Below, in pieces: positions 7,301 to 57,738 of a stretch of 64,000 bases of DNA; the first letter of the stretch is position 1; each line of letters begins with the position of its first letter. The stretch spans positions 56,306 to 120,305 of the forward strand of contig JACPJO010000004.1 of NCBI GenBank assembly GCA_016187485.1. Reading direction: 5' to 3'. Made by a program: the position numbers and the translations under genes. The stretch is from Candidatus Uhrbacteria bacterium. GTDB taxonomy: Bacteria > Patescibacteriota > Patescibacteriia > UBA9934 > UBA10169. Under the pieces are notes generated by a model. That model worked only from the letters and a program-made list of their open reading frames with translations. It did not search any database and was not told the origin of the DNA.

Positions 7301-10300
7301 GATCTGCGTATTCGTGGCAGAGTTCGTCACTTGATTCACCAGCCAATCCCATGCGTAAGCAAGCGGATTCAATACTTGGCCGGCCACGGCACAGCTGTCC
7401 GGTCGCCCCGTCACTGACGCGGAGAAACTTGCGCGGTCCCCCACGGCTTCAAGAATCACCTCAAGGGGGGAGAGAGCAACGTTCCCAATCCCGCAGGGGG
7501 CCGCATTATCCCGCGTGCGGAAAACCCACGAATAATAATTCCCGTAGTTGAGCGGTATAACCGGTGTGCCGTCCGGATTCGTAACCCCCCAGAGGGGAAT
7601 TCCCGGCACGGTAGGACTTTGCGGCTCCGATGTAATCCCCCCCCAGATCATCACACGATAATACATCGAGGGAGAAAGATCCCCGGCAAGTGTAAGTGCA
7701 ACGCCGTCTTCGACGTCCAATGGATCGTTTACAAAAGAGAGCGCTGTGGGGACAGGAGAGGTCGGATTGAAGGTTGCACAGAACTCATCCTCACAGGCAA
7801 AAACGCGCACATTTGGTTCAAGCACGTTTACCGCATTAACGTGACTCCCCGTAAGCCCCGTCGTTCCTGTTGCTTGCATGGCCGTGTTAAAAACGGCACC
7901 CACTTCTGCGTTCACACAGGCTGTCGTGCACTGTGGGTACGCGAGAGATACGGCGGGGTCGGTGAAATTCACGATCAATTCTTCCGTGTCAGAGATGCTG
8001 TAGCCAATGGGCGTGGCCGTGACAAGTGCCGGCTGTCCCGCATTGGTTTCCTCTTCAGGCACCACAAAGATAGGCTGGAGATTTTCAAAGGCCTGCGCGG
8101 CATTCCCCAAAAACAGGAGCGCATCGTTGATGTCCCCTTCAAGAGGACCGTACTGCGGATCTGCCGTCACGGGATCTGCGGCCTCCTCTGCAGCATCAAG
8201 CGCCGAAGAGAGCGTATCACCGGCAAGCAGCACAGGATTGAGCAGCGAGAAGACCGTGACGGTCTCTGCTGCGAGAGCCGTGTTCGTGCTTGTGAGCGTC
8301 GCAGCTGTTGGCCCTACCAGAGCATGCGCTTCAGGGAGGATCGTTTGCAGCGCCAGGAGAGCATCGGCAAGATCTGCAAGGTTGGTCGGAACCTCATCAA
8401 GAAGAGTTGTTGCCGGCGTGGCCGATTCCGGATCCCCAAGTGTTACCGTGTAGGGCGGATCCACATCAAAGTGGATGTTCTTTCCCTGCCGGTCGAGTTC
8501 CCACGCAAAGGCGTAATCATCAGGGTTGATAAGCACACACGCCCCCGTTGCAGGCAGAGCAACATACGGAATCGTCTCGTCGCTCGTCGCCGTATAATCT
8601 GGCGGACTTACGAGCACCTCTTCTACTTCGCAGGGAGTGGTGCTGGAGCGCGTCTTGAATCGATATGCATACGCCTGTGCCAGAGGAACACCACGGTTGT
8701 TTTTAATACCTGTGGTCGCCGTCGCGCGATACCAGGTATCGGGAAGCAGAGCCGTCGCAGGCGAGAAGATCAGGGAGAGATTCGTCGAGAGCAGAAAGTC
8801 TCCGGCAAGATGTCCTGTGGCAACCGTCTCGCAAGGATCCACTCCCGTCCCCGTACACCGATCTACGTAGAATGAGCCGTTGGTAAACGTAGAGATGTCC
8901 ATGCCGCTCGCGGGAAGGCCGGGAGTGAAGGAAACAGAGACCACCGCATTTGTACAGACGGCATCCCCATCGCTCCACAGTGTTGAGGGCGTGGGGGAAA
9001 TAAATGAGGTATCACACTGCGTACGGATTGTCGGATAGTTCGGGATGGGGCCGGTCGAGAAATGATACACGTACTGGGCGTTCACACTTGGCTCCCCGCA
9101 GGCGGCGGGCGTTGCCGCGCAACTGCCGTTCGAGCAACAAATTTGCGATGCCGTACACAACGAGGGCGTCTCTTGGCAATTCCCTACCGCAAAGAGAAGC
9201 TCATTTGATGGTGCGCCAAGAACCGTCACAGAAACCGGACCTGAAATGGCGCCCGTCGGTACAGGAGCGCTGACGTTCTCCGAAGAAGTGAAGCCAACCG
9301 GGCTTGCGGCTACCCCATCGTGGAAGGTGACACTCACTTCCGACGCGCTTGCGCCAAGATTGCTTCCGTAAATATTCACCGCTGTCCCCACAGGCCCCGC
9401 CACAGGCGCAAGCGCGCAAACGCCGGGTGTTGCAGGCGCCGAGACAACCGTGAAATCCTCCGCGTTACTTTGCGGACTCGTAGGGTAATCCGCACGGCGC
9501 ACAAAAATAGATTTGGGATTGGATTCCTCCGACGTGGTCATACTGGCTGGCACTTGCGCCACAATCGCCGAGTCCGTCCACCATGCATTCTGGCACGCAG
9601 CGGGAAAGTCCGGTTCAAACACCACATCGCCAAGCAAAGGGTCCTGAAAGACAACCACCCCTTCGGTAGATCCAAATCGTTGGCCTAAAATAGTCACGTA
9701 TTGCCCCACGCCACCTTCGGTCGGATGCGCAACACATTGTCCGGTTCCACACTGCGTATCGGACACACAAAGCTGCCCCGCATGTACGATATCGTTTTCA
9801 CACAAGGACCGGCCGGATGTCACTTCGCTGATGAACGGCGCACTGGAGGCATCTTCCGGTGAGAGAACACTGAAGTCAATCGTGTTAGACCCCTCATCAT
9901 TCACGAACACTTGGAGATCGTAGTCGCCCGGAGTACTCGGCGGAACAAGCAAGCTGATAAGCGCATCAAGCCACGTATCCACAGCGGGAAAGAATGACGC
10001 GCGATATACCGACGGACCGCTCAAGTAAAACGCCCCGACCGTCGGATCCTCCCCAAAATTATTTCCCACCACCGAGATGCGCGTAGCGGGCAGGCCGTTG
10101 CCCGGCGTTACCGCACAGAGCCCAGGACGGCGCACGTCATTCACATCAAAGTCTTGGATAAGCGGGCCGAAATCGTCATCCGTTCGGTCGGTAATTCCTG
10201 GCGTCGTGGCCGTCTCTGCTTTTACCACGCCGATCGCCCCATCTGCTGCCTCGGCAGGTACCGCCACAACTACCTGCGTGTTGTTCCAGCTCGGCGCCGG

Positions 10301-11728
10301 ACACGCAATGGGATCCACTTTAATGTCATCCGCCTCGGTATCCGGAGAACCGTAGAAGTACACGATGTTCGCTTGTGCACCAAAACCTGTTCCGTGAATC
10401 GTGACGAAATTATCCGGCGCGCCATTGCCAAGCGAAACCGATTGAATCCGCGGACCCGTGACGCAAACGCCGTTTACACAAAGCCCCGACGTGCAATCGC
10501 TGTTTTGGACACACACCGACGCATCGCAAGAAAGACAGTCCTCCCCGCCGCAATCTATCGCCGCCTCATCTTCATTTTGAATGGTGTCGGTACAGTGCGG
10601 GGCAAGAGCCGTCACGGGCACGCTGGAGGATGTCGTTTGATTACCGGCACAATCTGCCGCCACCGCGCGAATGGCATGGGTACTCGCTGGGGTAAGGTTC
10701 CCGGGCGTCCACGAACCCGATGCAAGACAGCTCACGGGACCGTCCCCCGCACAGGATGCCGGACCCGCAGAATCCACGGCTGTATTATCTACCGTAAAGG
10801 TGGTCACGCCCACACCGGAATCATCTGTAAGACTTGCCTGCAGAGACAGGGGGTAGCCCTCGTAGACAGGCGCGCCAGACGACGGATCAGTAATAGTCAC
10901 GGTTGGCCCCGTTGTATCTATGGCATCTGTCGTGGTGAAACCAAAGGAGCACGGCGCGGCAAGCGAACAGGCAATCTCTACGCCGTCCGCGCTTCGTAGA
11001 CCCTCAGAAACACGTACTTCGTAAGAAGTCGCCGGCTCAAAGCAGCGCTCAGAAGAACTGGGACAAGAAGCATCCGGCAGAACAGTAAGCACACGGCCAG
11101 AAGCGGAGAGATCCGTGGAAATAGCGTCCCCTCCGACAGGCGTCACGGTTATGTAAGGGGCAAGGGCGCTCGCGGACGTGGGAAGGTTTCGATTGAAGAG
11201 AATCTGAATCTCCGCATTTCTCGGCACCGAGGGAACCGAGGCCAGACACCCCCACGACGTAACGACAAATTGTGTGCGGTAGTCGGCAGGACATGTGGCG
11301 CAGGTGCTCAAATTTGTATCCTCCGGCCCCCCAATGACGTTGTTCTGCGACGTGGCGCCCACGAGCGATGAAATGACGAATTGCGCAATAGCAAAGGACG
11401 CCAAAATGATGGCAAGCCCGATGACCGCATTAATAATCATGCCGCGCGCTTTGCGCACCTTTTCCTCTTCTCCCTTCGAGAGCATCCACAAAAACCCGGC
11501 GTACAAGATCATGCCAATCAAGACCACGCCAGAGAACGTAATCGCTGCGCGCACAAGCCGCGCAATGATAAGACGGATGTCCGATGTCCCTCCAAACCCC
11601 GCTTGTGTGGCAAAATCTCCGAGGCCCTCGGTAATCGGCGACGAGGCGGCAAAAACAATATCGGGAAGCCACACGAGTGCGCCGAGAGAGAGGAGGAAGA
11701 CCAGTTGGGAGATGATGCGGCGTTTCAT
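1352..11728 (-). CDS. Giant (3458 aa) secreted, membrane-anchored surface protein. N-terminal signal peptide plus two-helix pilin-like hairpin, IPT/TIG-like beta-sandwich repeats, two arrays of Cys-rich CGDG/CGNG-x-EECDDGN-x-DGCS repeats (Myxococcus cysteine-rich-repeat type), C-terminal von Willebrand factor A domain with a MIDAS motif
   Basis: Single uninterrupted ORF with balanced amino-acid composition. N-terminus MKRRIISQLVFLLSLGALVWLPDIVFAASS, then TM helices GVVLIGMILYAGFLWM and AVIGLAIILASFAIAQFVI. Motifs VTIHGTGFG, VTILGQRFG and VNIYGSNLG are IPT-like. Repeats such as CGNGIREGREECDDNGNLDGNGCSATC occur about 6 and about 10 times. The VWA motif is DLIFLIDYSTSMS...GLGTHTAYGL...VILVSDGES. 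Confidence 0.85.
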   Translation of the reverse strand: MKRRIISQLVFLLSLGALVWLPDIVFAASSPITEGLGDFATQAGFGGTSDIRLIIARLVRAAITFSGVVLIGMILYAGFLWMLSKGEEEKVRKARGMIINAVIGLAIILASFAIAQFVISSLVGATSQNNVIGGPEDTNLSTCATCPADYRTQFVVTSWGCLASVPSVPRNAEIQILFNRNLPTSASALAPYITVTPVGGDAISTDLSASGRVLTVLPDASCPSSSERCFEPATSYEVRVSEGLRSADGVEIACSLAAPCSFGFTTTDAIDTTGPTVTITDPSSGAPVYEGYPLSLQASLTDDSGVGVTTFTVDNTAVDSAGPASCAGDGPVSCLASGSWTPGNLTPASTHAIRAVAADCAGNQTTSSSVPVTALAPHCTDTIQNEDEAAIDCGGEDCLSCDASVCVQNSDCTSGLCVNGVCVTGPRIQSVSLGNGAPDNFVTIHGTGFGAQANIVYFYGSPDTEADDIKVDPIACPAPSWNNTQVVVAVPAEAADGAIGVVKAETATTPGITDRTDDDFGPLIQDFDVNDVRRPGLCAVTPGNGLPATRISVVGNNFGEDPTVGAFYLSGPSVYRASFFPAVDTWLDALISLLVPPSTPGDYDLQVFVNDEGSNTIDFSVLSPEDASSAPFISEVTSGRSLCENDIVHAGQLCVSDTQCGTGQCVAHPTEGGVGQYVTILGQRFGSTEGVVVFQDPLLGDVVFEPDFPAACQNAWWTDSAIVAQVPASMTTSEESNPKSIFVRRADYPTSPQSNAEDFTVVSAPATPGVCALAPVAGPVGTAVNIYGSNLGASASEVSVTFHDGVAASPVGFTSSENVSAPVPTGAISGPVSVTVLGAPSNELLFAVGNCQETPSLCTASQICCSNGSCAATPAACGEPSVNAQYVYHFSTGPIPNYPTIRTQCDTSFISPTPSTLWSDGDAVCTNAVVSVSFTPGLPASGMDISTFTNGSFYVDRCTGTGVDPCETVATGHLAGDFLLSTNLSLIFSPATALLPDTWYRATATTGIKNNRGVPLAQAYAYRFKTRSSTTPCEVEEVLVSPPDYTATSDETIPYVALPATGACVLINPDDYAFAWELDRQGKNIHFDVDPPYTVTLGDPESATPATTLLDEVPTNLADLADALLALQTILPEAHALVGPTAATLTSTNTALAAETVTVFSLLNPVLLAGDTLSSALDAAEEAADPVTADPQYGPLEGDINDALLFLGNAAQAFENLQPIFVVPEEETNAGQPALVTATPIGYSISDTEELIVNFTDPAVSLAYPQCTTACVNAEVGAVFNTAMQATGTTGLTGSHVNAVNVLEPNVRVFACEDEFCATFNPTSPVPTALSFVNDPLDVEDGVALTLAGDLSPSMYYRVMIWGGITSEPQSPTVPGIPLWGVTNPDGTPVIPLNYGNYYSWVFRTRDNAAPCGIGNVALSPLEVILEAVGDRASFSASVTGRPDSCAVAGQVLNPLAYAWDWLVNQVTNSATNTQISVATYLPDGTLTATLDTDTDRALSCSAQCLRTGTISYAAVCGDGIVNPFYEDCDVALDPIGCSPTCQTVGVTACANPATDLLCCGNGIREGREECDDNGNLDGNGCSATCLNEGSTAAGLTCNDGTISQFDTVTPDGRSGGEECEDSNTISGDGCSAQCLREGSTPSADIGVHCGNGDVEEGEDCDDGGITSGDGCSANCLAEPLGPGVWSRTTPTGILNGVCGSNGREYNVTTGAGEECDDGNTTSGDGCSAQCQNEGSSVFYPVPSFCGNGGLPELGEECEISSSADDGVGPYDPLQTLEIEAVATQAVVDGEVRTTLRATGSDDATETSAFGTAEIGLSCSCTTDATCGEPALLGCGVSDCCFDRPAVQESTTVPLATTSAGVCRNALVRVAFTQQMGEESILEDNGTKHIVLTAFGEDTNGNGAYDSADVRYTTASDCPTNTTPVIVQDFSDRPWYARLWQNILRVVAPRAWAGSVSCIVASNLSIEDVETNPDEFITRVSVLYNQILEPQTLYRILVEADANYTDANPDGVLSRWGVGLVGNSSVFANFEASWSRIFATGNTICDVDFVQVEDLSASPGLFTQANTAHPLAAEAMTLIGPLAQPIVSVPGVYAWAWSGTSVSTTWGWNSSVADPNIVVVTPGASTSANTTATASTANPAINGVENVMAQLRIMEDTVLSPTTVGRIVGGTVEERVFLCENPWPAVGHFPFVDSAWYAGDPAPGITLTAPYTNFSAFYCRDAGERGTSDDLPALSVVQKTQNIASPGIFKEFLFAVDDPDIHDAIGVRVLSNSNYLSPAEWFAGQGFVGSPAAESVDGFEGVRDGRTVYVSAPNTGAALYPNMYAIAYNEGASAETRQIYQAMLGAWEFAGARDLTTGLLTVTNGRVCATPLPSGDMDPIEVNGELVACSTDAECAAVATGGSPALCDADKDKLRRDLKRLTDVRTIGEALTSYGETHRHCSVTKDQLCFEDSDCSGAEECVASVPTLGSGTYIPSFSLSAWPSWQAQLANALGRAVPTDPLNTFVSCPDGYDAETCYNALAAQAICPADSHVYTYRSIGGEEFWLSTDLEFGVAPPAETTLAWASPVDVDSPLPNLGTYYVGNANLPSPFASTPVLGGFQNARTCNGATFTATNVCGDGLIGSGEICEVGETTSVSCSTNVCANAVNLSFNGLPCTTASDCGSNGSCVATSGTRAVPCVGPSDASGLGCQAFQTASTSAACIPNYCGDGVIQGSETCDDGPLNGQYGFCATNCTWTSAVFCGDGLIGGAEACDCGSAASFNLLAPTPQCRTASASYLNGLYSTDPAYGCAADCSGTAPSCGDGTVNGAAEECDGTNEQWNGKLCVNGDPCTTNAECADGSLCGDPALSWAGVCPASTASDTLGLPQTRTRVCNGLGLPPYTNACRWPTTTGIPGGWQACAPVGSCGNGIPEGIEECDDGDTDEQDACRNNCTQNVCGDGVRNVGVESCDLGGQNGVPCNPAYSDTCNYCSATCTYQTVTGGYCGDGVINGGEVCDGASVPSYCFKGAINPTERVRGEVCGTDADCPFDYTCEALVGTCNGGSATAVDGEYVYNGFPCAQPPPETFDYNKACGDPIFNPDTFGSCVLQDCNASCSLACPFTLEQGAVLAQSETAVNRTTSVDLRSYLSEDPATAGAPDNATLYFPACTVGSALYASVSFDDVEPPNIDLIFLIDYSTSMSYEIDGTPPEADESTRLDIVKEALVDAADELYDAFPNGNLASGIVIFNEVNPATDVLAENPLPNASFTASKSELVLNLSQLANPGTGLGTHTAYGLSRAYELLTTDRPDTDVRIVILVSDGESDDLLAAAAASDTLDTLENTVIYTVAFTSNDDEIAVNNHFSSDVCGVDFYELNNSDGTPECAPPADGVEYAYNAPDADGFQAVVDTITANILGLSLNYETTTGFAGGVASEGDDVLLPFPPGFECPASGAFQIPFHINFNGSGTVNLSDLRLEYCPQ

Positions 11729-11737
11729 GCAAGGTTT

Positions 11738-13648
11738 CTAGGGAGCGGGAGGAGAGAAAATGGGCGGTAGGGGACACGAGCCGGAGGCAAGCGCATTTCC
11801 GTCGCAACAACTTGGCTGTGAGGCATCCACGGCGCAATCCCCCGGCGGGCCATAGGCGGGGTAATAACAAATTTGATAGGCCGACTCCACTTCGTTATTG
11901 ATAAAAGGGTAGTACAGCTGTGTGATGGTATCCTCCAGGTAGTCCAGGAACGACCCGTGCTCCAAAACCGCAACGGTCCCCACGACTTCTGGCTCCGTCG
12001 CAGGCGGGACTGCGGGCACCGTCACTCCCTCCGCAAGAGGCCGATACCAAATTTCATGGAACGGGCGCGGAGCAATGCCCATATTCGTGTTCGTTAGTGA
12101 CCCTACACGCATCGGCACATCAAACGTCACGCGCACGGGGGCAGAAATATCCACGTCGGGCTGATTTAACGTGGGAAGCAAGGACGCGATGGCGGGGCGA
12201 TCGAGGTTTACATCATCCGTCGTTGAAAAAAATGACCAAAAGTTGTCTATGGCAAGATCGTCGTCCGGCTCTGGCGTCAGTGCCGCGTTGGCTGGCGGCC
12301 CATTGGCAATAAGATTTTGGTCGTCGCCGTTTTTCCCACCTCCATCCAGAGAATTCCCTGCCACGTCCACCACGCCATCGTAGCCCACAGCCGTAAAGAG
12401 CGCTTGAGGCGGTTCGGCGCCGAGCGTGGCGGCACGCACCAGAAGCGTAAAGTCATCATTCCCTGGAAGACAGAAGATTGCTCCTCCGCAAGCGTTCTCG
12501 CCGCATTGGTCAAAACTCGTAAATTCGGTCGTGCGGTACCCATTTGTGATGCGCCATGTGCCTTCTACCGGTACCGCGTCACTATCGTCGTCACGCACTT
12601 GGAGGTTTGAGAAAAATCTTGCCGGCGTGGCGGTGGGACGATGCACTCCCGCCGTGGCGGTAGGGTCTACCGCCTCATTGAAGTTCACTTGCACCACGAT
12701 ATTGCGGTCTACAGTCCGATCGGCAACAGGAATAACGCTTTGCACATAGGGCGGGGTAATATCCACCACCGTGGAGACCGTAAATGACCAGGCATAGCCC
12801 GTGGTATTGGGCGGAGGGAAGGCCGGAAACGTTGTCGTAAGGTCAGGGCCAAGTTTCAAAATATCGGCATCCAAAAGGACAGAGTAGTTTTGCTCTTCTT
12901 CTGCGCTTCCAATAAACTCCACCGGGTCAAAGACAAAGATTTTTTTGTCTGCTGTATACGTGACGTCTACGGCATCTTGCACAAGAGCGCCCGCAACCCC
13001 ATCAGCCGTACGGTAAATTTTCACATTGCCCGCATTCACTTTACCCCGCGGGACTTCGGCCACCGGATCAATCGTGCCCGGAGCAATGAGGGAGTCAACA
13101 AACATCGATTCTTTAAATGTCACGATAATTTTTGTGTTGCGCGGGATCTCTACCGCTCCGCGAGCGGGATAATGATCTTCGATAATCCCCTGCCCCAGCG
13201 CTCCCGAAAGCGGTTCAATAAAGCCGGCAATGTTGGTAGAGGTAGATGGCTGGCGAAGCCCGAGCGAGCGCAGAAGCGCACTTAAGATAAACGAAGCGAT
13301 TCCGTAAGACGCAAGCACGATAGCCAAACCGATGACGGCGGTGCGAATGATGCCGCGCGCGGTTTGGATTTTCTTGGGATCGCCACCTGCCAGCATGTAG
13401 CGAATACCGGCGTACACAATGAGACAGACAAAGACGATGCCCAAAAACCCAATGACCGCACGAACAATCTTTGCTGCAATCACGCGAACGTCTTGTGTGG
13501 GCAGACCCTGAGCGCCAATGTCAGAAAGATTTGCGCCAAGCCCTGCTTCTGCGCCGAATGCTATCGACGAGAGAAAAAACAAACCCGCCGTCACGCTAAG
13601 AGTGATGGCTAAAAAAAGAGCGCTGCGTTTTGCACCCACAAACCGCAT
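11738..13648 (-). CDS. 636-aa secreted, membrane-anchored protein. Its N-terminal signal peptide plus two-TM hairpin module is paralogous to that of the giant protein
   Basis: N-terminus MRFVGAKRSALFLAITLSVTAGLFFLSSIAFGA...VRVIAAKIVRAVIGFLGIVFVCLIVYAGIRYMLAGGDPKKIQTARGIIRTAVIGLAIVLASYGIASFI aligns residue-by-residue with the giant protein's N-terminus. Its stop lies 10 nt upstream of the giant gene's start. Confidence 0.75.
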   Translation of the reverse strand: MRFVGAKRSALFLAITLSVTAGLFFLSSIAFGAEAGLGANLSDIGAQGLPTQDVRVIAAKIVRAVIGFLGIVFVCLIVYAGIRYMLAGGDPKKIQTARGIIRTAVIGLAIVLASYGIASFILSALLRSLGLRQPSTSTNIAGFIEPLSGALGQGIIEDHYPARGAVEIPRNTKIIVTFKESMFVDSLIAPGTIDPVAEVPRGKVNAGNVKIYRTADGVAGALVQDAVDVTYTADKKIFVFDPVEFIGSAEEEQNYSVLLDADILKLGPDLTTTFPAFPPPNTTGYAWSFTVSTVVDITPPYVQSVIPVADRTVDRNIVVQVNFNEAVDPTATAGVHRPTATPARFFSNLQVRDDDSDAVPVEGTWRITNGYRTTEFTSFDQCGENACGGAIFCLPGNDDFTLLVRAATLGAEPPQALFTAVGYDGVVDVAGNSLDGGGKNGDDQNLIANGPPANAALTPEPDDDLAIDNFWSFFSTTDDVNLDRPAIASLLPTLNQPDVDISAPVRVTFDVPMRVGSLTNTNMGIAPRPFHEIWYRPLAEGVTVPAVPPATEPEVVGTVAVLEHGSFLDYLEDTITQLYYPFINNEVESAYQICYYPAYGPPGDCAVDASQPSCCDGNALASGSCPLPPIFSPPAP

Positions 13649-16558: not shown

Positions 16559-18631
16559 TCAACTAGCAGCCTGTTTCTCTGCATGCGCCAGAGCATCTGC
16601 GTGGAGCTTGCGTTGAAGAATCTCGTTTTCGATTTTGAATTTGAGCTGGTACGCCTGCTGGAGCGCTTCGTGCGGTGTGGGGCGCGCCAAGAAACTTCGG
16701 GCCGTAAGTTGGCGAACGAAACGAAACGTGTCGGGGATCGCTCCGTAGGTCTTGAATTCTGTGATATGTCTGGCGAGTGATTCCTTCTGCGCCTCGGAAA
16801 ACGGCGGATCCGTTTCCACACGGCCCTCGTAGATGGCCTGCATCTGCGCGAGATTATAATTCAGGTCGCCGTACTGCAGACCTCCGTGTTTGTCGTACGC
16901 GCGGTCTTCAAGAAGTTCTTTTACGCCCGTTCGCTTCATCTTCCCGTGCCCTAAGATATTCATGAGAATCACGCCCACGGCAAACGTATCCACTTTCGTC
17001 TGCTCCTTCCAGTCCGGAACCTTCGCTCTCGCGGCAACTTGCTCCGGAGCGATATAGAGCGGCGTCCCCACGACGTTTCCTTCTTTTGTCTCAAGAGGCG
17101 ATTCTGACCGAAGCCGAGACGGCTGTGTTTGCTCAATCGCCTCACCGTCTGGAAGAGCGGCAAGATACTGTTGCATCCGCGCATTATCCCAATTGCGCGG
17201 TGACCACTTTTGCAATTCCGGAAGGTCGGCGAGTTCCTTGTACGCGTATCTCTCCACGAGCCTTTGCAAGCGTGGAACGAGCTCACGCATGCTCGCAATT
17301 TTTTCTTCTGAAGATAGTTCCTCTTGCGTCACAGCCGCTACATCTCTCAAAGCTTCCCAAATGGCCTCCTGCTCTTTCATGGGGAGAAGTTCCCCGAGGC
17401 GCTCCGCCTTACCCTGTTCCTCCGTCCGTGCAAGAAATCCGACACCCCGCACCGACACCAGGGTATACAGTGCATGCGCATCGTGAAGAATCTTCCCCCA
17501 CAGAGTGTGCGTGGCCTCAGAAAACGCAACAACGTCTCCCGACCTGGACCCTTTGGCAAGTCCGAAGTCAAGAAGGTCAAGGCGCCCGTCGGCTCCGCGC
17601 ATAAGGTTCGCCGGCTTCACGTCCCGATGCCGCAGACCGCGCGTATTCATGATCGCAAGCGCTTCAAGCACATCAATGATGTCGTTCATTGCCTTCGAGC
17701 AAACTTCAAGCTGTTCAAAACGATTTCCCTGTTGAAATACGCGCAGACTTTCCCGGCGGTGATCAATCAACTCTCGTTGAAATGACGAGCCTTCTACATA
17801 TTCCATAAACACCGCGATAGCCTCGCGTGTGCGCACCGTCTCTTGCCATGCGTCGGCCAACACCTGAACTTTTTCTTTCTGTCTCGTCTGGAGACGAATA
17901 GCATCAAAGAAAGCCGGAAAATGCGCGGCCTCAACGGGAGAGAACTCTTTACCCTCTGCCATAATCCCCTTTGCAAGCGAAGAAAGAACCACGCCGTTTT
18001 CGTTGCGTCCGGGATGCAGAGCTGCATGCGCGGCAATCTCACGGGCCACCATGGTTTCCTTGCGGATTGTATCTTCCACAAGCGCCGGCTCGCCACGAGA
18101 AACCGCCACGATCTTCATGACAATTTTCTTCCCCGTCTCGCGCGAAGTCCCTACATACGCACGCGCCATCCCGCCTGCCCCCAAAAATTCAAAATCAAAT
18201 GTCTGCCCATGAAGCTCAAGAGTTTTTGGTGCAGGAAACACGTGTCCATCTTTGTCCTCAAAACGGGAGGCCTCCATGGAATAGGTGTAGCGGCCCATCC
18301 AGCCGTGAACAAAAAGCGGGTTCAGATCTTTCAAGGTGGTAAAGATTCGTTCCGCTTGGTGTTCCTTCTGCTCTTCTGCGGACCACACGGGCCAGGCAAA
18401 ACCTTTTTGGTCGCGCACACGTACAGCGGGGGGCATTTTTACTTCCACGCGCATGGCAGGGGCCCGCTCTTTTTCGAAGTTCGCCGTATCTTCCCACAAC
18501 TCTTCTGGTAAATAGCCCGGGTCGTTCACCTGATCAATGTCTTCCACGCCATAAATCTCAATCGTAGGTTCCAGTGGAACCCGTGGCTCTTCGTTCTGCT
18601 CTTCCATGGACATGCGCTCAACACGTGGCAT
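16559..18631 (-). CDS. Eukaryotic-like Ser/Thr protein kinase, cytoplasmic, with a long insertion in the activation segment
   Basis: LRHRDVKPANLM (catalytic loop), LLDFGLAKG (DFG) and GTPLYIAPEQ (APE). DFG and APE are separated by about 150-170 aa. No TM or PASTA domain. The track start is a TTG at 18670. The first ATG (MPRVERMSMEEQ) is at about 18631. Confidence 0.8.
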   Translation of the reverse strand: MPRVERMSMEEQNEEPRVPLEPTIEIYGVEDIDQVNDPGYLPEELWEDTANFEKERAPAMRVEVKMPPAVRVRDQKGFAWPVWSAEEQKEHQAERIFTTLKDLNPLFVHGWMGRYTYSMEASRFEDKDGHVFPAPKTLELHGQTFDFEFLGAGGMARAYVGTSRETGKKIVMKIVAVSRGEPALVEDTIRKETMVAREIAAHAALHPGRNENGVVLSSLAKGIMAEGKEFSPVEAAHFPAFFDAIRLQTRQKEKVQVLADAWQETVRTREAIAVFMEYVEGSSFQRELIDHRRESLRVFQQGNRFEQLEVCSKAMNDIIDVLEALAIMNTRGLRHRDVKPANLMRGADGRLDLLDFGLAKGSRSGDVVAFSEATHTLWGKILHDAHALYTLVSVRGVGFLARTEEQGKAERLGELLPMKEQEAIWEALRDVAAVTQEELSSEEKIASMRELVPRLQRLVERYAYKELADLPELQKWSPRNWDNARMQQYLAALPDGEAIEQTQPSRLRSESPLETKEGNVVGTPLYIAPEQVAARAKVPDWKEQTKVDTFAVGVILMNILGHGKMKRTGVKELLEDRAYDKHGGLQYGDLNYNLAQMQAIYEGRVETDPPFSEAQKESLARHITEFKTYGAIPDTFRFVRQLTARSFLARPTPHEALQQAYQLKFKIENEILQRKLHADALAHAEKQAAS

Positions 18632-18671
18632 AACGAGGGCTATTGTAGCGGTTTTTTTGGCAGGAGACAAA

Positions 18672-27593: not shown

Positions 27594-29020
27594 TGATGGT
27601 CTTTCTTTTCGTGTCCTCCGCCTCCATGACCCCCTGCGGGTTTTTTTGGTTTTCCAAAAAAGAGGTTGCCGACCACGGGAAAAAGGCGCTCGCCGCGCTC
27701 TTCCCACGGCTTCGGACGCTCGTGCGGAGGGTGCAGGTGATCCAAACCAAAGCCAAAGCCAAAATATTTTCTTGTCCAACTACCAAATCCGGCAAGTTGA
27801 TTTACTACGCCATCTGTCCACTGTTCCCCATAGTATAGGATGGGTTCGCCAAGCACGCGCCACGCGGAGCGCAGAAGATACCCGGCGGAAAGTCCCGTGA
27901 ATGCCGCCGTGCCCAGCAGCCCGCGACCGACGTGCCCCAAAAACGGATCGCCTTTCACCTCCCCCTTTCCCACCCTCTCAAGCACTCGTTCATCTTGTGT
28001 CATCTCCCACAGCAGCTGGTTCATCTCAAGACGTTTGACGGGGTGCCACCACGATGGCGGATGAACAACGTCGCCCGTCACGGTACTTTCTATGTGCCCG
28101 TGCGCATTTTCACGATACGGCGCCACAAGTTTTTTGGTTTCTTCCGAAAGCCAAGCGTCGCCGTAGTTCTTCCACCCCTTCTCGGGAAGTCCGAAAACAT
28201 CCTGCAGAGAAAATCCCTCTTTGTCTTCCACCGTCGTGCGTTCGTGCATCTTGTCCGACGTCATCTTCATGAACCGCTCAAAAGCGCCCTTCGCTTTTTC
28301 AAGCGTGCGCGCATAGGCAGCCTCGGATGCTTTGAGCCGCTGCTTCACGTCGGCAAAATCCAGCTCTTCATCGTTGCGAAGATTTTGGATCGTCGTGTGT
28401 AATTCTTCTCGCGCCTTATAAAACTTCAGAACAGCTTCTTGGTCACCATCAAGCTTTTCATCGCTCTGCCGGTCTCGAACCCGAATCTCTTTCACCTCTT
28501 TATCACGTTGGAGTGTCCGCAAGATGGCCAGTTCCTGCAAAATTTTGAAGTAGTCCGGCGGATCGCCCTCGTGGTGATCGATAGTGACGAAGTGAAGATC
28601 CGGGTCGGTGGCATAGGTATCTCCCACGCGAATGCCTATGTCTGACATCCCCACAGCATCCTGCAAACGAACAGCCGTACTCTCATCTGCTTTGTAGACT
28701 CCCACATTCAACTCTACGACCCCATCGGTACGACGCACATATTCTCGCGCTAAATGCGCGCCGGGATTACGCTCCCCGCGATTTTTTGAAATGGCGCGTT
28801 CCTGTGCGGTTTTAAGCGCATCGAGAATCGCACGGTTTGTAAGCACCTCCATCGCCGCCGTCCTTCGAAGGGACGCTCCCGCCTGTTTTTCGGCGTCCTC
28901 GAGCACCTGACGAGCATGGCGTTCCCGTTCGCGAAGTTCCGCCATCGTTGCCGCGTGCGCCATGTCCGGATTGCCGAGGGAAGCTCCAGGTCTTCCGTGA
29001 TCAGGCGAATGCGTCGTCAT
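27590..29020 (-). CDS. Hypothetical 476-aa protein with a Gly/His-rich C-terminal tail (FGFGFGLDHLHPPHE...GGHGGGGHEKKDHH)
   Basis: Long ORF with host-like codon usage. No family recognised. A possible TM helix near the C-terminus. Confidence 0.5.
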   Translation of the reverse strand: MTTHSPDHGRPGASLGNPDMAHAATMAELRERERHARQVLEDAEKQAGASLRRTAAMEVLTNRAILDALKTAQERAISKNRGERNPGAHLAREYVRRTDGVVELNVGVYKADESTAVRLQDAVGMSDIGIRVGDTYATDPDLHFVTIDHHEGDPPDYFKILQELAILRTLQRDKEVKEIRVRDRQSDEKLDGDQEAVLKFYKAREELHTTIQNLRNDEELDFADVKQRLKASEAAYARTLEKAKGAFERFMKMTSDKMHERTTVEDKEGFSLQDVFGLPEKGWKNYGDAWLSEETKKLVAPYRENAHGHIESTVTGDVVHPPSWWHPVKRLEMNQLLWEMTQDERVLERVGKGEVKGDPFLGHVGRGLLGTAAFTGLSAGYLLRSAWRVLGEPILYYGEQWTDGVVNQLAGFGSWTRKYFGFGFGLDHLHPPHERPKPWEERGERLFPVVGNLFFGKPKKPAGGHGGGGHEKKDHH

Positions 29021-29100
29021 ATGGCTCGCATTCTACCAAAACACCGCAAATCCGCACAGCCGCTTGTCGAGACGCAAGGGGTACGTTATCGTGGGTGGAT

Positions 29101-30603
29101 ATGTTGGGTACTTTGGAGGGCCTTCTGGGCGTCATTGCGGAGAACTATCCATCGGGGACAGACGCCTCGCTTGTTGAACGTGCTTATCAATTCGCGAGAG
29201 CGGCACACGAGGGCCAGATGCGCCTTACCGGGGAGCCGTACATCACCCATCCCACCATTACCGCCACGAAATTGGCCGCCATGAAACTTCCCCTTGCCGT
29301 CGTGGCCGCCGGACTCCTGCACGATGTCCCCGAAGACACCTCGCGCACAAGCGAGGAAATTCGCGCCGCGTTCGGGGATGATATAGCCAACATGGTGGAA
29401 GGCGTCACAAAACTTGGAAAAGTGAAGTTCCGGGGGATGGATCGGTATGTGGAAAACCTGCGAAAAATGTTCTATGCCATGGCGGAAGACATTCGCACCA
29501 TCTACATTAAATTCGCCGACCGTCTGCACAACTTGGAAACCTTGAGCGCCCAGCCCATCCCTAAACGTGAACGCATCGCCCGCGAGGTACTCGAGATCTA
29601 TGCCCCCATCGCAAATCGTCTCGGCATGGGAGAATTTAAAGGAGCCTTTGAGGATCTGGCGTTCCAATATTTAGAACCAAAAAAATATCAAACGGTCAAA
29701 GCGCTCCGCGACAAAATCTTGCGCGCGCGCGAAGGCGTGCTTTCGCGCATGATCGACGCTCTGAAGAAAGATTTGCTTGCCGAAGACCTTCAGTTTGTCT
29801 CTGCCCACGGCCGCATGAAGCACCTCTACAGCCTCCACCAAAAACTAGAACGGCACGACAATGACATTGCGCGTATCTATGACCTCATCGCCATCCGTGT
29901 GATCGTGAAAAAAATCCCGGATTGCTATACCGTGCTTGGTATCGTGCATAACCGGTGGAAGCCGCTAAAGGGCCGCATTAAAGACTACGTCGCCCAGCCA
30001 AAACCAAACGGCTATCAGTCCATTCACACAACGATCTTCGGCGACGACGGCATGATCGTAGAGGTACAAGTACGTACCGAGGAAATGCACGAGCTTGCTG
30101 AATACGGACCGGCGCGGCATTGGCAGTACAAAGAAGGAAGCGTTCCCATCACCAAGCTTGATACGCGCTGGATCAATGAACTGGTGAAAGTGCAGAAAGA
30201 GCTCACCGGCAAGGAGGAGTTTCTGGAACACCTGGAAGACCTGAAGCTTGATGCATTTCGCGACCGCATTTTTGTCTTCACCCCCAAAGGAGATGTCATT
30301 GACTTAGCCGAGGGTTCCACGCCGATTGATTTTGCTTACGCCATCCATTCGGAGATTGGGAATAAATGCGTTGCAGCGCGCGTGAATGATCAAATGGTGC
30401 AGTTAGATGCCCCTCTCAAGTCGGGCGACTTGTGCGAGATTGTCATTGATAAAAACCGCAAAGGGCCAAATCCCGACTGGATGGATTTCGTGAAAAGCCG
30501 GCATGCGCGTACGAAAATCAAAGACGGGTCGCGCAGCACGATCCGCCAATGGCTGAAATCCAAGTTTGATAAAAGCCGTGAGCGAAAGATCAAAGGTCTA
30601 TAA
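29101..30603 (+). CDS. rel: (p)ppGpp synthetase/hydrolase of the RelA/SpoT family, minimal form with HD hydrolase plus synthetase domains and no TGS/ACT
   Basis: HD motif LHDVPEDT and synthetase region YIKFADRLHNLETL...GYQSIHTTIF. ATG at 29101. The track ORF starts upstream at 28948. Confidence 0.85.
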   Translation: MLGTLEGLLGVIAENYPSGTDASLVERAYQFARAAHEGQMRLTGEPYITHPTITATKLAAMKLPLAVVAAGLLHDVPEDTSRTSEEIRAAFGDDIANMVEGVTKLGKVKFRGMDRYVENLRKMFYAMAEDIRTIYIKFADRLHNLETLSAQPIPKRERIAREVLEIYAPIANRLGMGEFKGAFEDLAFQYLEPKKYQTVKALRDKILRAREGVLSRMIDALKKDLLAEDLQFVSAHGRMKHLYSLHQKLERHDNDIARIYDLIAIRVIVKKIPDCYTVLGIVHNRWKPLKGRIKDYVAQPKPNGYQSIHTTIFGDDGMIVEVQVRTEEMHELAEYGPARHWQYKEGSVPITKLDTRWINELVKVQKELTGKEEFLEHLEDLKLDAFRDRIFVFTPKGDVIDLAEGSTPIDFAYAIHSEIGNKCVAARVNDQMVQLDAPLKSGDLCEIVIDKNRKGPNPDWMDFVKSRHARTKIKDGSRSTIRQWLKSKFDKSRERKIKGL

Positions 30604-53043: not shown

Positions 53044-54237
53044 TTATTTACTTATTTTTACAATGACCCCCGCTCCCACTGTGTGTCCTCCTTCACGAAT
53101 GGCGAAGCGCTGCTTCTCTTCAAGAGCAACCGGGATGATGAGTTTCACTTGGCAGTTCACCGTGTCTCCGGGCATCACCATCTCCGTTCCGGCAGGAAGT
53201 TCAATCTCTCCCGTCACATCGGTCGTACGAATGTAGAACTGCGGCTTATACCCCTTGAAGAATGGCTTGTGGCGTCCCCCTTCCTCTTTCGTGAGGGCGT
53301 AGATCTCGGCCTCAAATTCCGTGTGGGGCGTCACCGAACCAGGCTTCGCAAGCACCATACCACGTTCCACCTCTTCCTTTTTAACACCGCGAAGGAGCAC
53401 GCCGGCGTTATCCCCTGCGCGACCCTCGTCGAGCGTCTTGTTAAACATTTCAATTCCTGTCACGACAGTCTTCATGGTTTCTTCGCGTAGCCCAACCAAT
53501 TCACCTTCCTCACCCACCTTCACGATACCGCGCTCGATGCGGCCCGTCACCACGGTGCCACGACCTTCAATCGAGAAAACATCTTCCACCGGCATGAGGA
53601 ACGGACGATCCGTCTCACGTACAGGCTCGGGGATGTATTCGTCGAGCGTCTTTAAGAGATCAAGAACCGGTTTGGCGGCCGCTTCGTCCGTGGGGTTCTG
53701 AAGCGCCTTCAAAGCGGAGCCGCGGATGATGGGCGTTTCGTCGCCGGGGAATTCGTATTTCTTCAAAAGGTCGCGAATTTCTTCCTCGACCAAATCGATG
53801 AGTTCCGGATCATCCACGGTGTCTACCTTGTTCAAGAACACGACAATGCGCGGCACGCCCACCTGGCGCGCTAGAAGAATGTGCTCACGCGTTTGCGGCA
53901 TGGGACCGTCGGCGGCAGAGACTACCAAAACAGCGCCGTCCATCTGGGCTGCTCCTGTGATCATGTTCTTTACGTAGTCAGCATGTCCGGGACAATCCAC
54001 GTGGGCGTAGTGGCGTGCCGTCGTTTCATACTCCGTATGCGCGGTGGCAATGGTAATTCCACGAGACTTGGACTCTGGAGCTTTGTCCAGATCGTCCACG
54101 CCCTTCTTCTGAGCTATAAGACCATGCGAACTGGCCACGGCAAGGATGGCCGCCGTAAGCGTCGTTTTTCCATGGTCCACGTGTCCAATGGTACCCACGT
54201 TTACGTGCGGTTTTGTTCGTTCAAACGTTCCGGCCAT
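53044..54237 (-). CDS. tuf: Elongation factor Tu
   Basis: [14 protein letters not shown]... Confidence 0.95.
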
Positions 54238-54349
54238 AATTTGGCTTTATTGAGCGACCCCAGAGGAGCGCCAATGATTAAAATTAAGTGAGTTTACAAT
54301 AATGTGGCGCCAGTATAACACAGGTCAGATTCCTTGCAAGAGGCCACCC

Positions 54350-54619
54350 CTATTCTACCGGCTCAAGATAAAACTGGGTTTCGGACTCGAGGTCTGGCGG
54401 GGGAGGCGGGAGAGGAGGTTCCGGCTCCTTCCTTATCTCTGGCTTCGGCGGCTTCTCGGCAGGACGCGGTTGCTCTTTGGGCAGCTCACCTTTTCCATCC
54501 ACGAGCGTCTCGTAGCGTTCGGGACTCAACAGAACAAACGACTCCTCCTCCCCCATGACGATAAGCGGATGGCCTGTTTTTCTTGCAAGAGAGAGCAGGC
54601 GTTTGAGAGAGGCGTCCAT
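54350..54619 (-). CDS. Small hypothetical protein with a Phd/YefM-antitoxin-like N-terminal domain plus a Pro-rich low-complexity tail, between fusA and tuf
   Basis: GHPLIVMGEEESFVLLSPERYETL resembles the Phd/YefM core ([23 protein letters not shown]). Tail PKPEIRKEPEPPLPPPPPDLE. The antisense ORF 54302..54652 is rejected. Confidence 0.45.
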   Translation of the reverse strand: MDASLKRLLSLARKTGHPLIVMGEEESFVLLSPERYETLVDGKGELPKEQPRPAEKPPKPEIRKEPEPPLPPPPPDLESETQFYLEPVE

Positions 54620-54622
54620 AGA

Positions 54623-56713
54623 TTAAGCGCGACGCGCAGTTCCTTGTCGTGATTCGACAATCGTTTGGGCGATATTCGGCGGCACTTCGTCGTAGTGATC
54701 GAACTCCATCGTGTAGGACGCACGGCCTTGTGTGAGCGAGCGCACCGTTGTGGCATAGCCGAACATTTCGGCAAGCGGCACAAATGCGCGAATGACTTTC
54801 GCTTCCATCCGGTCCGACATCTCCTGGATTTGTCCCCGTTTGGAGTTCAAATCTCCCACCACCGTTCCCATAAATTCTTCCGGGGTGATGACTTCCACTT
54901 TCATGACAGGCTCAAGGAGCACGGGCTTGGCACGTTTGGCTGCATCTTGAAAGGCAAGCGAGCCGGCAATCTTAAAGGCTGCTTCAGATGAGTCCACTTC
55001 ATGGTAAGACCCGTCATACAAGTGAATACGAAAGTCCAGCACGGGATACCCAGCTACTACGCCGCGCTCGGCCGCTTCGATAATGCCCTTTTCAATAGGG
55101 TTGATGAACTCTTTGGGAATGACACCGCCCTTGATTTCGTTCAAGAACTCAAATCCTTTTCCCTGGTTGGGCTCCACACGCACGCGCGCATGGCCATACT
55201 GCCCCTTTCCCCCTGTTTGGCGGATAAATTTTCCTTCTCCTTCCGCCTCGAGGCGAATCGTCTCGCGGTACGCCACTTGCGGGCGCCCGACGTCAGCCTC
55301 TACTTTGTACTCGCGCTTCATGCGATCAATAATGATCTCCAAGTGAAGCTCGCCCATTCCTTTAATGATAGTCTGTCCAGATTCTTCATCGGACGCGACG
55401 TGGAATGTCGGGTCTTCTTCCGCAAGTTTTGCAAGCGCCATACCCATTTTTTCCTGATCGGCTTTTGTTTTTGGTTCGATGGCGACAGAAATAACAGGAT
55501 CGGGAAACGTGATGGACTCAAGTACGATGGGGTGATCCGGGTCGCACAGCGTGTTCCCCGTCGTCGTGCCGCGCAATCCCACGGCCGCCGCAATTTCTCC
55601 GGCATACACATCTTGCACTTCCTCACGGTGATTTGCGTGAAGACGCACAATGCGCCCAATCCGTTCTTTGTCCCCAGTGGAGGTATTGTACACGTATGAC
55701 CCCGCCTTCAGGTTGCCGGAATACACGCGGAAGAACACAAGCTTTCCGATGAAAGGGTCCGCGGCAACTTTAAAGGCAAGGGCAGCAAAAGGCTCGCTGT
55801 CACTTGCCTGACGCACTTCTTCTTTTTCGGGATCGTCCGGATGAAATCCTTTGACCGGAGGAATATCAAGCGGTGAGGGCAGATAATAGTTGACGGCATC
55901 AAGCAGCTGTTGAACCCCCTTATTCTTGAGCGCAGAGCCGCAGAGAATCGGAAAGACATCGCGCGCGATGGTTGCCTTACGAAGCGCCAAACGAATCTCG
56001 TCTACCGAAAGCTCCTCGCCCGCGAGGTAGCGCGTCATGAGAGCCTCGTCCGTCTCCACGATCGTCTCCAGAAGTTCGCTCCGATACTTCTGCGCCTGTT
56101 CCTTCAAGTCACTGGGAATATCCTGTTCCTCAATATCTTTTCCCAGATCATCGGTAAACGTGAAAGCACGCATGAGGATAAGATCCACCACACCCTGGAA
56201 ATTGTCCTCAGTGCCGATAGGAAGTTGAATCGGTCGAGCCTTTTTGGTAAGGCGCGCGTGAATGGACGCAACGTCTTTGTAAAAATCCGCACCGGTACGA
56301 TCAAGCTTGTTGATGAAACACACGCGCGGTACAGAGTACTTATCTGCTTGGCGCCACACCGTTTCCGACTGCGATTCCACACCTGCCACTCCGTCAAACA
56401 CGGTAACGCCGCCGTCAAGCACGCGCAGCGACCGCTCCACTTCTACGGTAAAGTCTACGTGACCGGGAGTATCAATAATGTTGTAGCGACACCCTTTCCA
56501 AAAACAGGTTGTTGCGGCAGCCGTGATGGTGATGCCGCGCTCACGTTCCTGTTCCATCCAGTCCATCGTCGCTTCCCCTTCATGCACTTCCCCAATCTTA
56601 TGCTTCTTCCCCGTGTAGAAAAGCACGCGCTCGGTTGTCGTGGTTTTCCCGGCATCAATGTGCGCAATAATGCCGAAGTTACGAGTTTGCTCAAGAGAAT
56701 ATTCGCGTGACAT
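54623..56713 (-). CDS. fusA: Elongation factor G
   Basis: [19 protein letters not shown]... Confidence 0.95.
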
Positions 56714-57262: not shown

Positions 57263-57688
57263 TTACTTTTTGGTTTTGGCTTTGGGCTTCTTCGATCCGT
57301 AGCGCGAGCGCCCGCGGTTGCGTCCCTCCACTCCTTGCGCATCGTACACACCGCGCACCAAGTGATAACGCACACCCGGCAAGTCTTTCACGCGTCCGCC
57401 GCGCACCAGCACGATGGAGTGTTCTTGCAAATTGTGTCCTTCACCCGGAATGTAAGCCGTCACCTCCGTGCCGTTCGAAAGACGAACGCGCGCGATTTTG
57501 CGAATAGCGGAGTTTGGTTTCTTTGGCGTCATGGTCGTCACCTTCACACACACCCCGCGCTTAAAGGGGCTGGGAAGATTTGTACGCTTGCGGTGCAGCG
57601 AGTCGTAACGGTATTGCGTCGCCGGCGACTTGGATTTGCTCTTTGGGCTCTTGCGGCCTTTTCGGATGAGTTGTTGGACAGTTGGCAT
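57263..57688 (-). CDS. rpsL: 30S ribosomal protein S12
   Basis: [26 protein letters not shown] at 57688. The track ORF is extended. Confidence 0.9.
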
Positions 57689-57738
57689 AAAAAGTGCCGG
57701 AACTGTAGCAAAGGATGAAAAAGGCGTCAATGCGTCCT

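Follow-up and report, generated by a model that had tools for sequence, protein, structure and literature searches.

Phd/YefM antitoxins (PF02604; for example, Escherichia coli YefM (2a6q), Mycobacterium tuberculosis YefM/RelJ (3cto/3oei) and P1 Phd (3hs2)) are the closest described relatives of the gene reported here. In these proteins, a small, folded N-terminal head precedes a disordered C-terminal region in which a binding determinant resides, and the toxin-binding tails of classical antitoxins co-vary with fast-evolving toxins. Antitoxin-fold genes without a neighbouring cognate toxin, the orphan (solitary) antitoxins, are documented in the literature; the described cases are typically scattered remnants or serve phages in counter-defence. 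YefM is a repressor for which two arginines, R10 and R31, are reported to be essential for operator binding (PMC4803016), and Doc, the partner of Phd, phosphorylates elongation factor Tu (EF-Tu) at T382 (PMC5851678). Here, we describe a gene, hereafter X, that lies between fusA (elongation factor G, EF-G) and tuf (EF-Tu) in a 64,000-nucleotide (nt) stretch of a Candidatus Uhrbacteria genome (contig JACPJO010000004.1, positions 56,306 to 120,305; hereafter, the window) and that a first-pass annotation had flagged as encoding an orphan Phd/YefM-like protein. We propose, with a probability of roughly 45%, that X is a vertically inherited housekeeping-type protein, a former Phd/YefM antitoxin that acts as a dimer presenting a tethered C-terminal peptide to a conserved partner, for which EF-Tu is the prime candidate.

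The protein encoded by X on the minus strand of the window is 89 amino acids (aa) long (MDASLKRLLSLARKTGHPLIVMGEEESFVLLSPERYETLVDGKGELPKEQPRPAEKPPKPEIRKEPEPPLPPPPPDLESETQFYLEPVE), with the following parts, identified from the open reading frame (ORF) list, conservation and structural modelling.

54350..54619, minus strand: X coding sequence, 89 aa, stop codon (54350-54352) included
54497..54619, minus strand: N-terminal domain, aa 1-41, modelled as helix 3-15, strands 19-22 and 27-30 and helix 33-40, a predicted Phd/YefM-type fold without strand beta1
54395..54496, minus strand: Pro/Glu/Lys-rich linker, aa 42-75, predicted to be disordered
54353..54394, minus strand: conserved C-terminal segment DLESETQFYLEPVE, aa 76-89, the core of which, QFYLEPVE-COOH, is the family motif

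X is a real gene under strong purifying selection. The ORF lies between fusA and tuf with the sequence originally read for it, within the usual gene order (rpsL-rpsG-fusA-(X)-tuf-rpsJ-rplC...), and the identical protein is recorded in NCBI as a hypothetical protein from a Candidatus Uhrbacteria metagenome-assembled genome (MAG). A 73%-identical homologue (P0002) is likewise flanked by fusA and tuf on each of three independent metagenome contigs (L001-L003). Between X and the homologue on L001, the ratio of non-synonymous to synonymous substitution rates (dN/dS) was 0.095, nucleotide differences were predominantly at third codon positions (13, 8 and 42 at positions 1, 2 and 3, respectively), and the last 23 codons contained 13 synonymous differences and a single non-synonymous one. 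That the spacer between fusA and tuf merely contains a spurious ORF might be suspected from the PF02604 match of X alone, which falls below threshold, and from a longer antisense ORF that overlaps X (54302..54652, plus strand). Against this stand the low dN/dS, the excess of third-position differences and approximately 130 homologues with conserved domain and motif architecture, and stop codons break the antisense ORF in the relative. The first-pass annotation had named the combined absence of a profile match and of conservation as the sign of such a frame; the ORF is conserved and the family matches PF02604, and the conservation data already exclude the spurious-ORF explanation, to which we give a vanishingly small probability.

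The X family comprises 132 distinct sequences of 83-220 aa, gathered through an exhaustive profile search (E <= 1e-3; 53 cluster representatives), a pattern scan in which each Genome Taxonomy Database (GTDB) species was represented by a single genome (58 family loci) and an additional search (44 family proteins); the loci compared below are from GTDB species representatives and metagenome contigs. Every named source of the family is an Uhrbacteria or Patescibacteria/Parcubacteria MAG. Many MAG records (L015, L023, L029, L033 and others) carry 'uncultured Gammaproteobacteria' titles, which are contradicted by gene content and are likely a blanket mislabel. We found no Pfam or NCBIfam model of the family's own and no paper describing it, its members being annotated 'hypothetical protein'; an NCBIfam search with X gave no match, and a literature search combining Uhrbacteria and antitoxin returned nothing.

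Three parts are common to all members: an N-terminal domain, a variable linker and a C-terminal motif. The N-terminal domain, of approximately 45 residues, has the consensus xxxLxRLLxLxRKTGDxLIVTDxxGxxxFVLMxLDxYExLL, with R7, L11, T15, G16, V29, Y36 and E37 near-invariant and basic residues kept in helix 1 (R7 in 125 of 131 members, and K/R at positions 13-14). The linker varies widely in length and composition across the family; in X, it has a dN/dS of 0.25 relative to L001, above the value for the whole gene, together with insertions and deletions, and it is modelled by AlphaFold2 without secondary structure at predicted local distance difference test (pLDDT) scores of 59-65. Taken whole, the proteins are highly acidic, their median net charge being -15. 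Three linker subtypes can be distinguished, containing a DIWDAM..AG..ETWDL..MS module (37 sequences), a KREIPLWK segment (22 sequences) or neither (plain; 73 sequences), and X, among the shortest members, belongs to the plain subtype. Longer members (for example, P0054, P0070, L019 and L025; P0045 and P0062) thus carry extra conserved linker modules that are absent from X, the larger being a ~40-aa module, DIWDAMxPAGxxGETWDLxxMSxxExxxLExQYxxY, and the smaller the short KREIPLWK; both contain tryptophan and may represent additional binding motifs or a small folded unit.

Profile, model and alignment evidence at the family level points to a divergent Phd/YefM fold for the N-terminal domain. For X alone, the earlier claim that the first ~45 residues match the Phd/YefM core is weak: a scan with PF02604 gave E = 0.092 and a score of 13 bits, below the gathering cut-off of 29.8, and matched aa 4-41 to positions 12-50 of the 74-position profile. 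Across the family, the same claim is much better supported, with PF02604 matching 52 of 54 family representatives at E <= 1 (best E = 6.9e-10), nine other members with a match scoring 24-28 bits in one checked set, just under the cut-off, and no other Pfam family matched by more than three representatives. An AlphaFold2 model built from 44 family sequences placed the helices and strands listed above at pLDDT 85-90, and the best eight Foldseek matches in the Protein Data Bank (PDB) were all M. tuberculosis YefM/RelJ (2.4-2.8 Å over 38-42 columns), with E-values of only ~0.5-1.3 because the domain is so small. The modelled alpha1-beta2-beta3-alpha2 unit could be superposed on YefM/Phd structures. 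Against PDB sequences, the family profile had E. coli YefM as its sole match (E = 0.23) and a two-sequence profile had no match, while hhalign aligned the family with E. coli YefM over beta2-beta3-alpha2 (80.5% probability, E = 1.3e-5) and gave no significant match with P1 Phd. The likeness to Phd/YefM proteins extends to the alpha1-beta2-beta3-alpha2 core, the hydrophobic strands, the Y-E-x-L helix start and the overall plan of a small, folded N-terminal head followed by a disordered C-terminal region with a binding determinant, the last of these being predicted in X.

However, X differs from Phd/YefM proteins in several respects. Strand beta1 is absent from every member checked, as the PF02604 matches of X and of the nine members noted above start at profile positions 11-15 of 74, where the proteins themselves begin; an upstream extension of X is impossible, with the fusA stop codon 3 nt before its ATG. 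Both DNA-binding arginines of YefM are replaced: R31 aligns with a conserved family aspartate (Gly23 in X), and R10, by ungapped extension of the hhalign alignment, falls opposite residue 2 (D/E/N). Most members lie just below the Pfam cut-off, no toxin gene adjoins X, the C-terminus is the most conserved part of the protein instead of the most variable, and X is fixed beside tuf, with vertical inheritance and a housekeeping-type promoter of its own. Three Phd/YefM features that we tested, namely a complete fold, an adjacent toxin and a basic DNA-binding patch with an operator, are thus missing, and X is therefore derived from Phd/YefM rather than a functional member of that group.

The description of X as an orphan has held up, with no toxin gene adjacent to it in the window or in approximately 48 related loci. 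A Pfam scan of 20 less obvious window ORFs found no RelE, ParE, YoeB, Doc or Fic, and PADLOC gave no match. X could nonetheless be a genuine antitoxin, or an anti-toxin decoy, directed at a toxin (Doc/Fic, YoeB or ParE-type, all of which attack translation) that is encoded elsewhere in the genome or brought by phages or hosts. A Phd/YefM fold with a disordered C-terminal region is how antitoxins are canonically built, solitary antitoxins are already known, and X adjoins tuf, the product of which is targeted by Doc, the partner of Phd (PMC5851678); yet this reading sits poorly with the missing toxins, with a C-terminal motif that is invariant family-wide, unlike toxin-specific tails, and with vertical inheritance at a single fixed locus under a housekeeping-type promoter, and mimicry of the Doc target site by the tail was checked and found to be wrong (see below). 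We consider it quite improbable. X also differs from the orphan antitoxins described so far in being lineage-wide, syntenic, strongly constrained and part of a translation gene cluster. Separately, at one locus only (L042, 3789-4467, approximately 1.5 kb upstream of X), an 86-aa excisionase/MerR-like helix-turn-helix ORF is followed by a 149-aa ORF with an N-terminus that, by eye, looks Fic/Doc-like.

The most conserved feature of the X family is its C-terminal motif, [DE]x[FYE]-G-E-E-Q-F-Y-L-E-P-[IVL]-E. Nearly all members (123 of 132) end exactly in F-Y-L-E-P-[IVL]-[ED], and within this set the residues F, Y, L, E and P vary little or not at all; pLDDT in X rises from the linker values to 78 over the last nine residues. 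The tail had initially been read as Pro/Glu/Lys-rich and disordered; disorder is indeed predicted, but the tail is not merely disordered, the invariant terminal peptide having been overlooked. Pairwise p-distances in the N-terminal domain reach 0.79 across the family, and the invariance of the motif while this domain diverges argues for a slowly evolving partner. Among 168 genome-wide matches to the tail pattern, 58 were family members, and the other 110 were close to the chance estimate (a 9-residue pattern in 596 Gb), giving no evidence that the motif is shared beyond the X family; a literature search for 'FYLEP' returned nothing. Within the window, QFY[LI] is common to the X tail (aa 82-85, 54359-54370) and EF-Tu (aa 333-336, 53236-53247) and recurs in no other of the 51 window ORFs (18,557 residues), and no covariation was found between the X tail and EF-Tu variants (QFF, QYY) in 45 genomes.

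Three candidate roles for the tail were considered, and two of them were rejected. A role as a Doc pseudosubstrate was suggested by the QFY[LI] shared with EF-Tu, but T382, which by our own residue count we take to lie in the GGRTVGAG loop of E. coli EF-Tu, is outside the QFY strand, and the lack of covariation with EF-Tu variants also speaks against this role. Replacement of the missing beta1 by the tail (a circular permutation) was not supported, as the monomer AlphaFold model shows no strand or bridge there despite the pLDDT of 78, although a dimer might still allow it. Finally, beta-clamp-binding motifs have the form QL[SD]LF or QLxLxL, and QFYLEP mismatches at the fifth and sixth positions.

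Gene neighbourhoods were compared around X, the flanking genes of which in the window are as follows.

54623..56713, minus strand: fusA (EF-G), upstream neighbour of X in the window (ORF list; Pfam domains of the identical gene)
53044..54237, minus strand: tuf (EF-Tu), invariant downstream neighbour of X (ORF list)

The conserved linkage of X is to tuf and not to the fusA-tuf interval. In the window, 112 nt separate the X stop codon from the tuf ATG, and every one of the 47 resolved loci has tuf downstream of X, at a distance of 70-358 nt. In contrast, the distance from fusA to X ranges from 4 nt to >6 kb in relatives: fusA is 4-180 nt upstream of X in eight loci, and elsewhere unrelated genes precede X, with fusA 0.5 kb to >6 kb away. 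What lies upstream differs between loci (fusA, membrane proteins, enzymes), without any recurrent gene. The position between fusA and tuf, first remarked on as unusual, is thus true of the window and of its near relative, but only its tuf side is conserved, and the adjacency to fusA is local and derived. Pairwise distances in the X domain correlate with those of EF-Tu (Mantel r = 0.57; none of 2,000 permutations as high), and X is therefore co-inherited with tuf rather than mobile, that is, inherited vertically.

Expression signals around X bear on the same relationship, and those in the window are listed here.

54617..54625, minus strand: junction of the fusA stop codon (TAA), 3 nt and the X ATG, from the sequence, with the same 3-nt spacing in L001-L003
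54312..54339, minus strand: sigma-70-type tuf promoter from a promoter scan (TTGCAA, 16 nt, TG-extended TATACT, then the discriminator GGCGCC)
54249..54275, minus strand: small hairpin in the tuf 5′ leader (RNA fold -11 kcal/mol, z = -1.6)

The tuf promoter is kept in L001-L003, and all 48 X-tuf spacers contain the same strong promoter, CTTGCR, 17 nt and TGnTATACT with a G+C-rich nCGCC discriminator. At 33 of the 48 loci (L016-L069), X has its own promoter (TTGACA-16-TAAAAT/TAAGAT; for example, L019, 5964-6000), often with a terminator hairpin of the preceding gene just upstream, and the X promoters have G+C-rich discriminators like those of the tuf and rpsL promoters. The -10 hexamer of these promoters is at a fixed distance of ~9 nt from the X ATG, so that the leader would be ~3 nt and the predicted mRNA essentially leaderless. 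A similarly short leader (~7 nt) follows from the rpsL promoter of the window (57730..57702), which has a G+C-rich discriminator and lies 13 nt from the ATG at 57688; Uhrbacteria may generally give their first cistrons a short leader or none. A literature search for Patescibacteria leaderless promoters returned nothing. G+C-rich discriminators are associated with stringent-type control. The window also encodes a RelA/SpoT homologue (28948-30603, plus strand; HD, RelA_SpoT and TGS domains), which would fit control of this type. In the window genome and in L014, X has no promoter of its own and starts 3-4 nt after the fusA stop codon; any coupling of X translation to that of EF-G in the window genome would therefore be a local, derived arrangement, with X serving as the last cistron of an rpsL-rpsG-fusA operon through termination-reinitiation.

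The hairpin in the tuf leader is also found in L001 (818-837), with a different stem (z = -1.2, both z-scores being modest), and recurs in many X-tuf spacers (L016-L069) as a G+C-rich structure, often GGGC-loop-GCCC, ~10-25 nt before the start codon. No obvious Shine-Dalgarno sequence was present in the tuf leader, and an Rfam search of the whole window found four tRNAs only.

The fold and the fixed position beside tuf also invite a second explanation, in which X retains the antitoxin logic and controls transcription of the X-tuf(-S10) unit. Its N-terminal dimer would bind promoter DNA and its C-terminal peptide a co-regulator (for example, EF-Tu in a toxin-like role), and EF-Tu synthesis would come under feedback control resembling conditional cooperativity. 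Autorepressing antitoxins such as YefM share this fold (PMC4803016), helix 1 keeps its basic residues, X always abuts the tuf promoter (in the window, the -35 element begins 10 nt past the X stop codon), and an inverted repeat spans the -35 element of the tuf promoter at 5 of 48 loci, against 0.8 expected. However, apart from the promoter hexamers, neither the 48 tuf promoters nor the 33 aligned X promoters showed a conserved dyad or operator, R10 and R31 of YefM are both replaced, strand beta1 is absent and the proteins are very acidic. A regulator in the YefM sense is therefore disfavoured by the loss of the DNA-binding residues, and regulation of the tuf unit by X seems to us rather unlikely. 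The first-pass annotation had offered a domesticated antitoxin-fold regulator or a translation-factor-associated protein; that pair of options probably still gives the best reading, with the fold now seen as truncated and the YefM-type regulator as the less favoured half.

In the tethered-peptide role that we prefer, the ~41-residue N-terminal domain, with its alpha-beta-beta-alpha core, would most likely serve as a dimerisation module and the flexible acidic linker, of variable length, as a tether, so that the C-terminal peptide G-E-E-Q-F-Y-L-E-P-V/I-E could dock in a pocket of a highly conserved partner, with each dimer presenting two tethered copies. The placement of X always directly upstream of tuf, together with its translation-gene-type promoter, suggests that this partner is most probably a translation component, with EF-Tu the prime candidate. 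Antitoxin C-termini follow a comparable logic, and tethered-peptide proteins offer a further analogy: the bacterial single-stranded DNA-binding protein (SSB), with its acidic tip DDDIPF, and the archaeal and eukaryotic ribosomal stalk proteins (aP1/P1-P2), the tails of which recruit translational GTPases, likewise consist of an N-terminal domain (oligomerising in those proteins), a long, flexible acidic linker and an invariant acidic-hydrophobic terminal peptide. As in such adaptors, the X family has a flexible linker and a peptide at the extreme C-terminus, the latter in 123 of 132 members, and X is encoded with EF-G and EF-Tu. The likeness is one of analogy only, as X has no sequence or fold relationship to SSB or stalk tails, and its motif contains a proline and ends in glutamate.

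A narrower version would make X a previously unrecognised, translation-factor-associated dimeric scaffold of antitoxin origin, the peptide of which binds EF-Tu or another translational GTPase to recruit or sequester it, as a bacterial equivalent of the archaeal and eukaryotic stalk tails, or for which EF-Tu serves as a toxin-like co-regulator of its own synthesis; at this level of detail, we regard the proposal as speculative and on balance improbable. Several points weigh against the tethered-peptide role as a whole. The assignment to EF-Tu is drawn from just gene adjacency and analogy, and dimerisation of X from its fold family. The sole sequence link between X and EF-Tu, the shared QFY[LI], is probably a chance coincidence. 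The conserved basic residues of helix 1 could contact nucleic acid, a point in favour of a regulator, and a fixed adjacency to a promoter is equally expected of a cis-acting transcription factor. Lastly, the absence of a toxin gene beside X holds for GTDB species representatives and metagenome contigs, with no search of whole genomes for a distant toxin.

Other features of the window were noted in passing. The gene for ribosomal protein S12 (57263-57688, minus strand) has an apparent length of 141 aa, against 206 aa for the mechanical ORF and 89-94 aa for gene calls on identical contigs, so that its annotation is inconsistent; the window S12 appears to carry an insertion relative to typical S12. 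A 3,458-aa protein (1352-11728, minus strand) combines a T4SS-pilin-like N-terminus with TIG and bacterial Ig-like domains and, at the C-terminus, a VWA domain, and is followed by a 636-aa ORF (11738-13648, minus strand) with a T4SS_pilin-like N-terminus and a Big_5 domain; both are likely surface or attachment proteins of an episymbiont-type organism. A Hanks-type Ser/Thr protein kinase (16559-18670, minus strand; 703 aa, partial Pkinase match) and the RelA/SpoT homologue mentioned above are of regulator kinds that act on translation in other bacteria.

Parts of toxin-antitoxin systems are usually mobile, fast-evolving accessory genes, whereas X is a fixed, vertically inherited gene of the translation cluster across a lineage of the Candidate Phyla Radiation. 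Relative to Phd/YefM proteins, it has lost the toxin, the first strand and the DNA-binding arginines of YefM, while its invariant C-terminal peptide has no counterpart in classical Phd/YefM proteins; it is a clear case of antitoxin domestication into a translation gene cluster. A partner such as EF-Tu or another translation component would make the family a novel type of factor-associated protein, whereas a DNA-binding X would be a dedicated regulator whose gene sits immediately upstream of the tuf promoter. Either way, a 10-residue peptide and a small domain provide a testable handle on lineage-specific translation biology in unculturable organisms.

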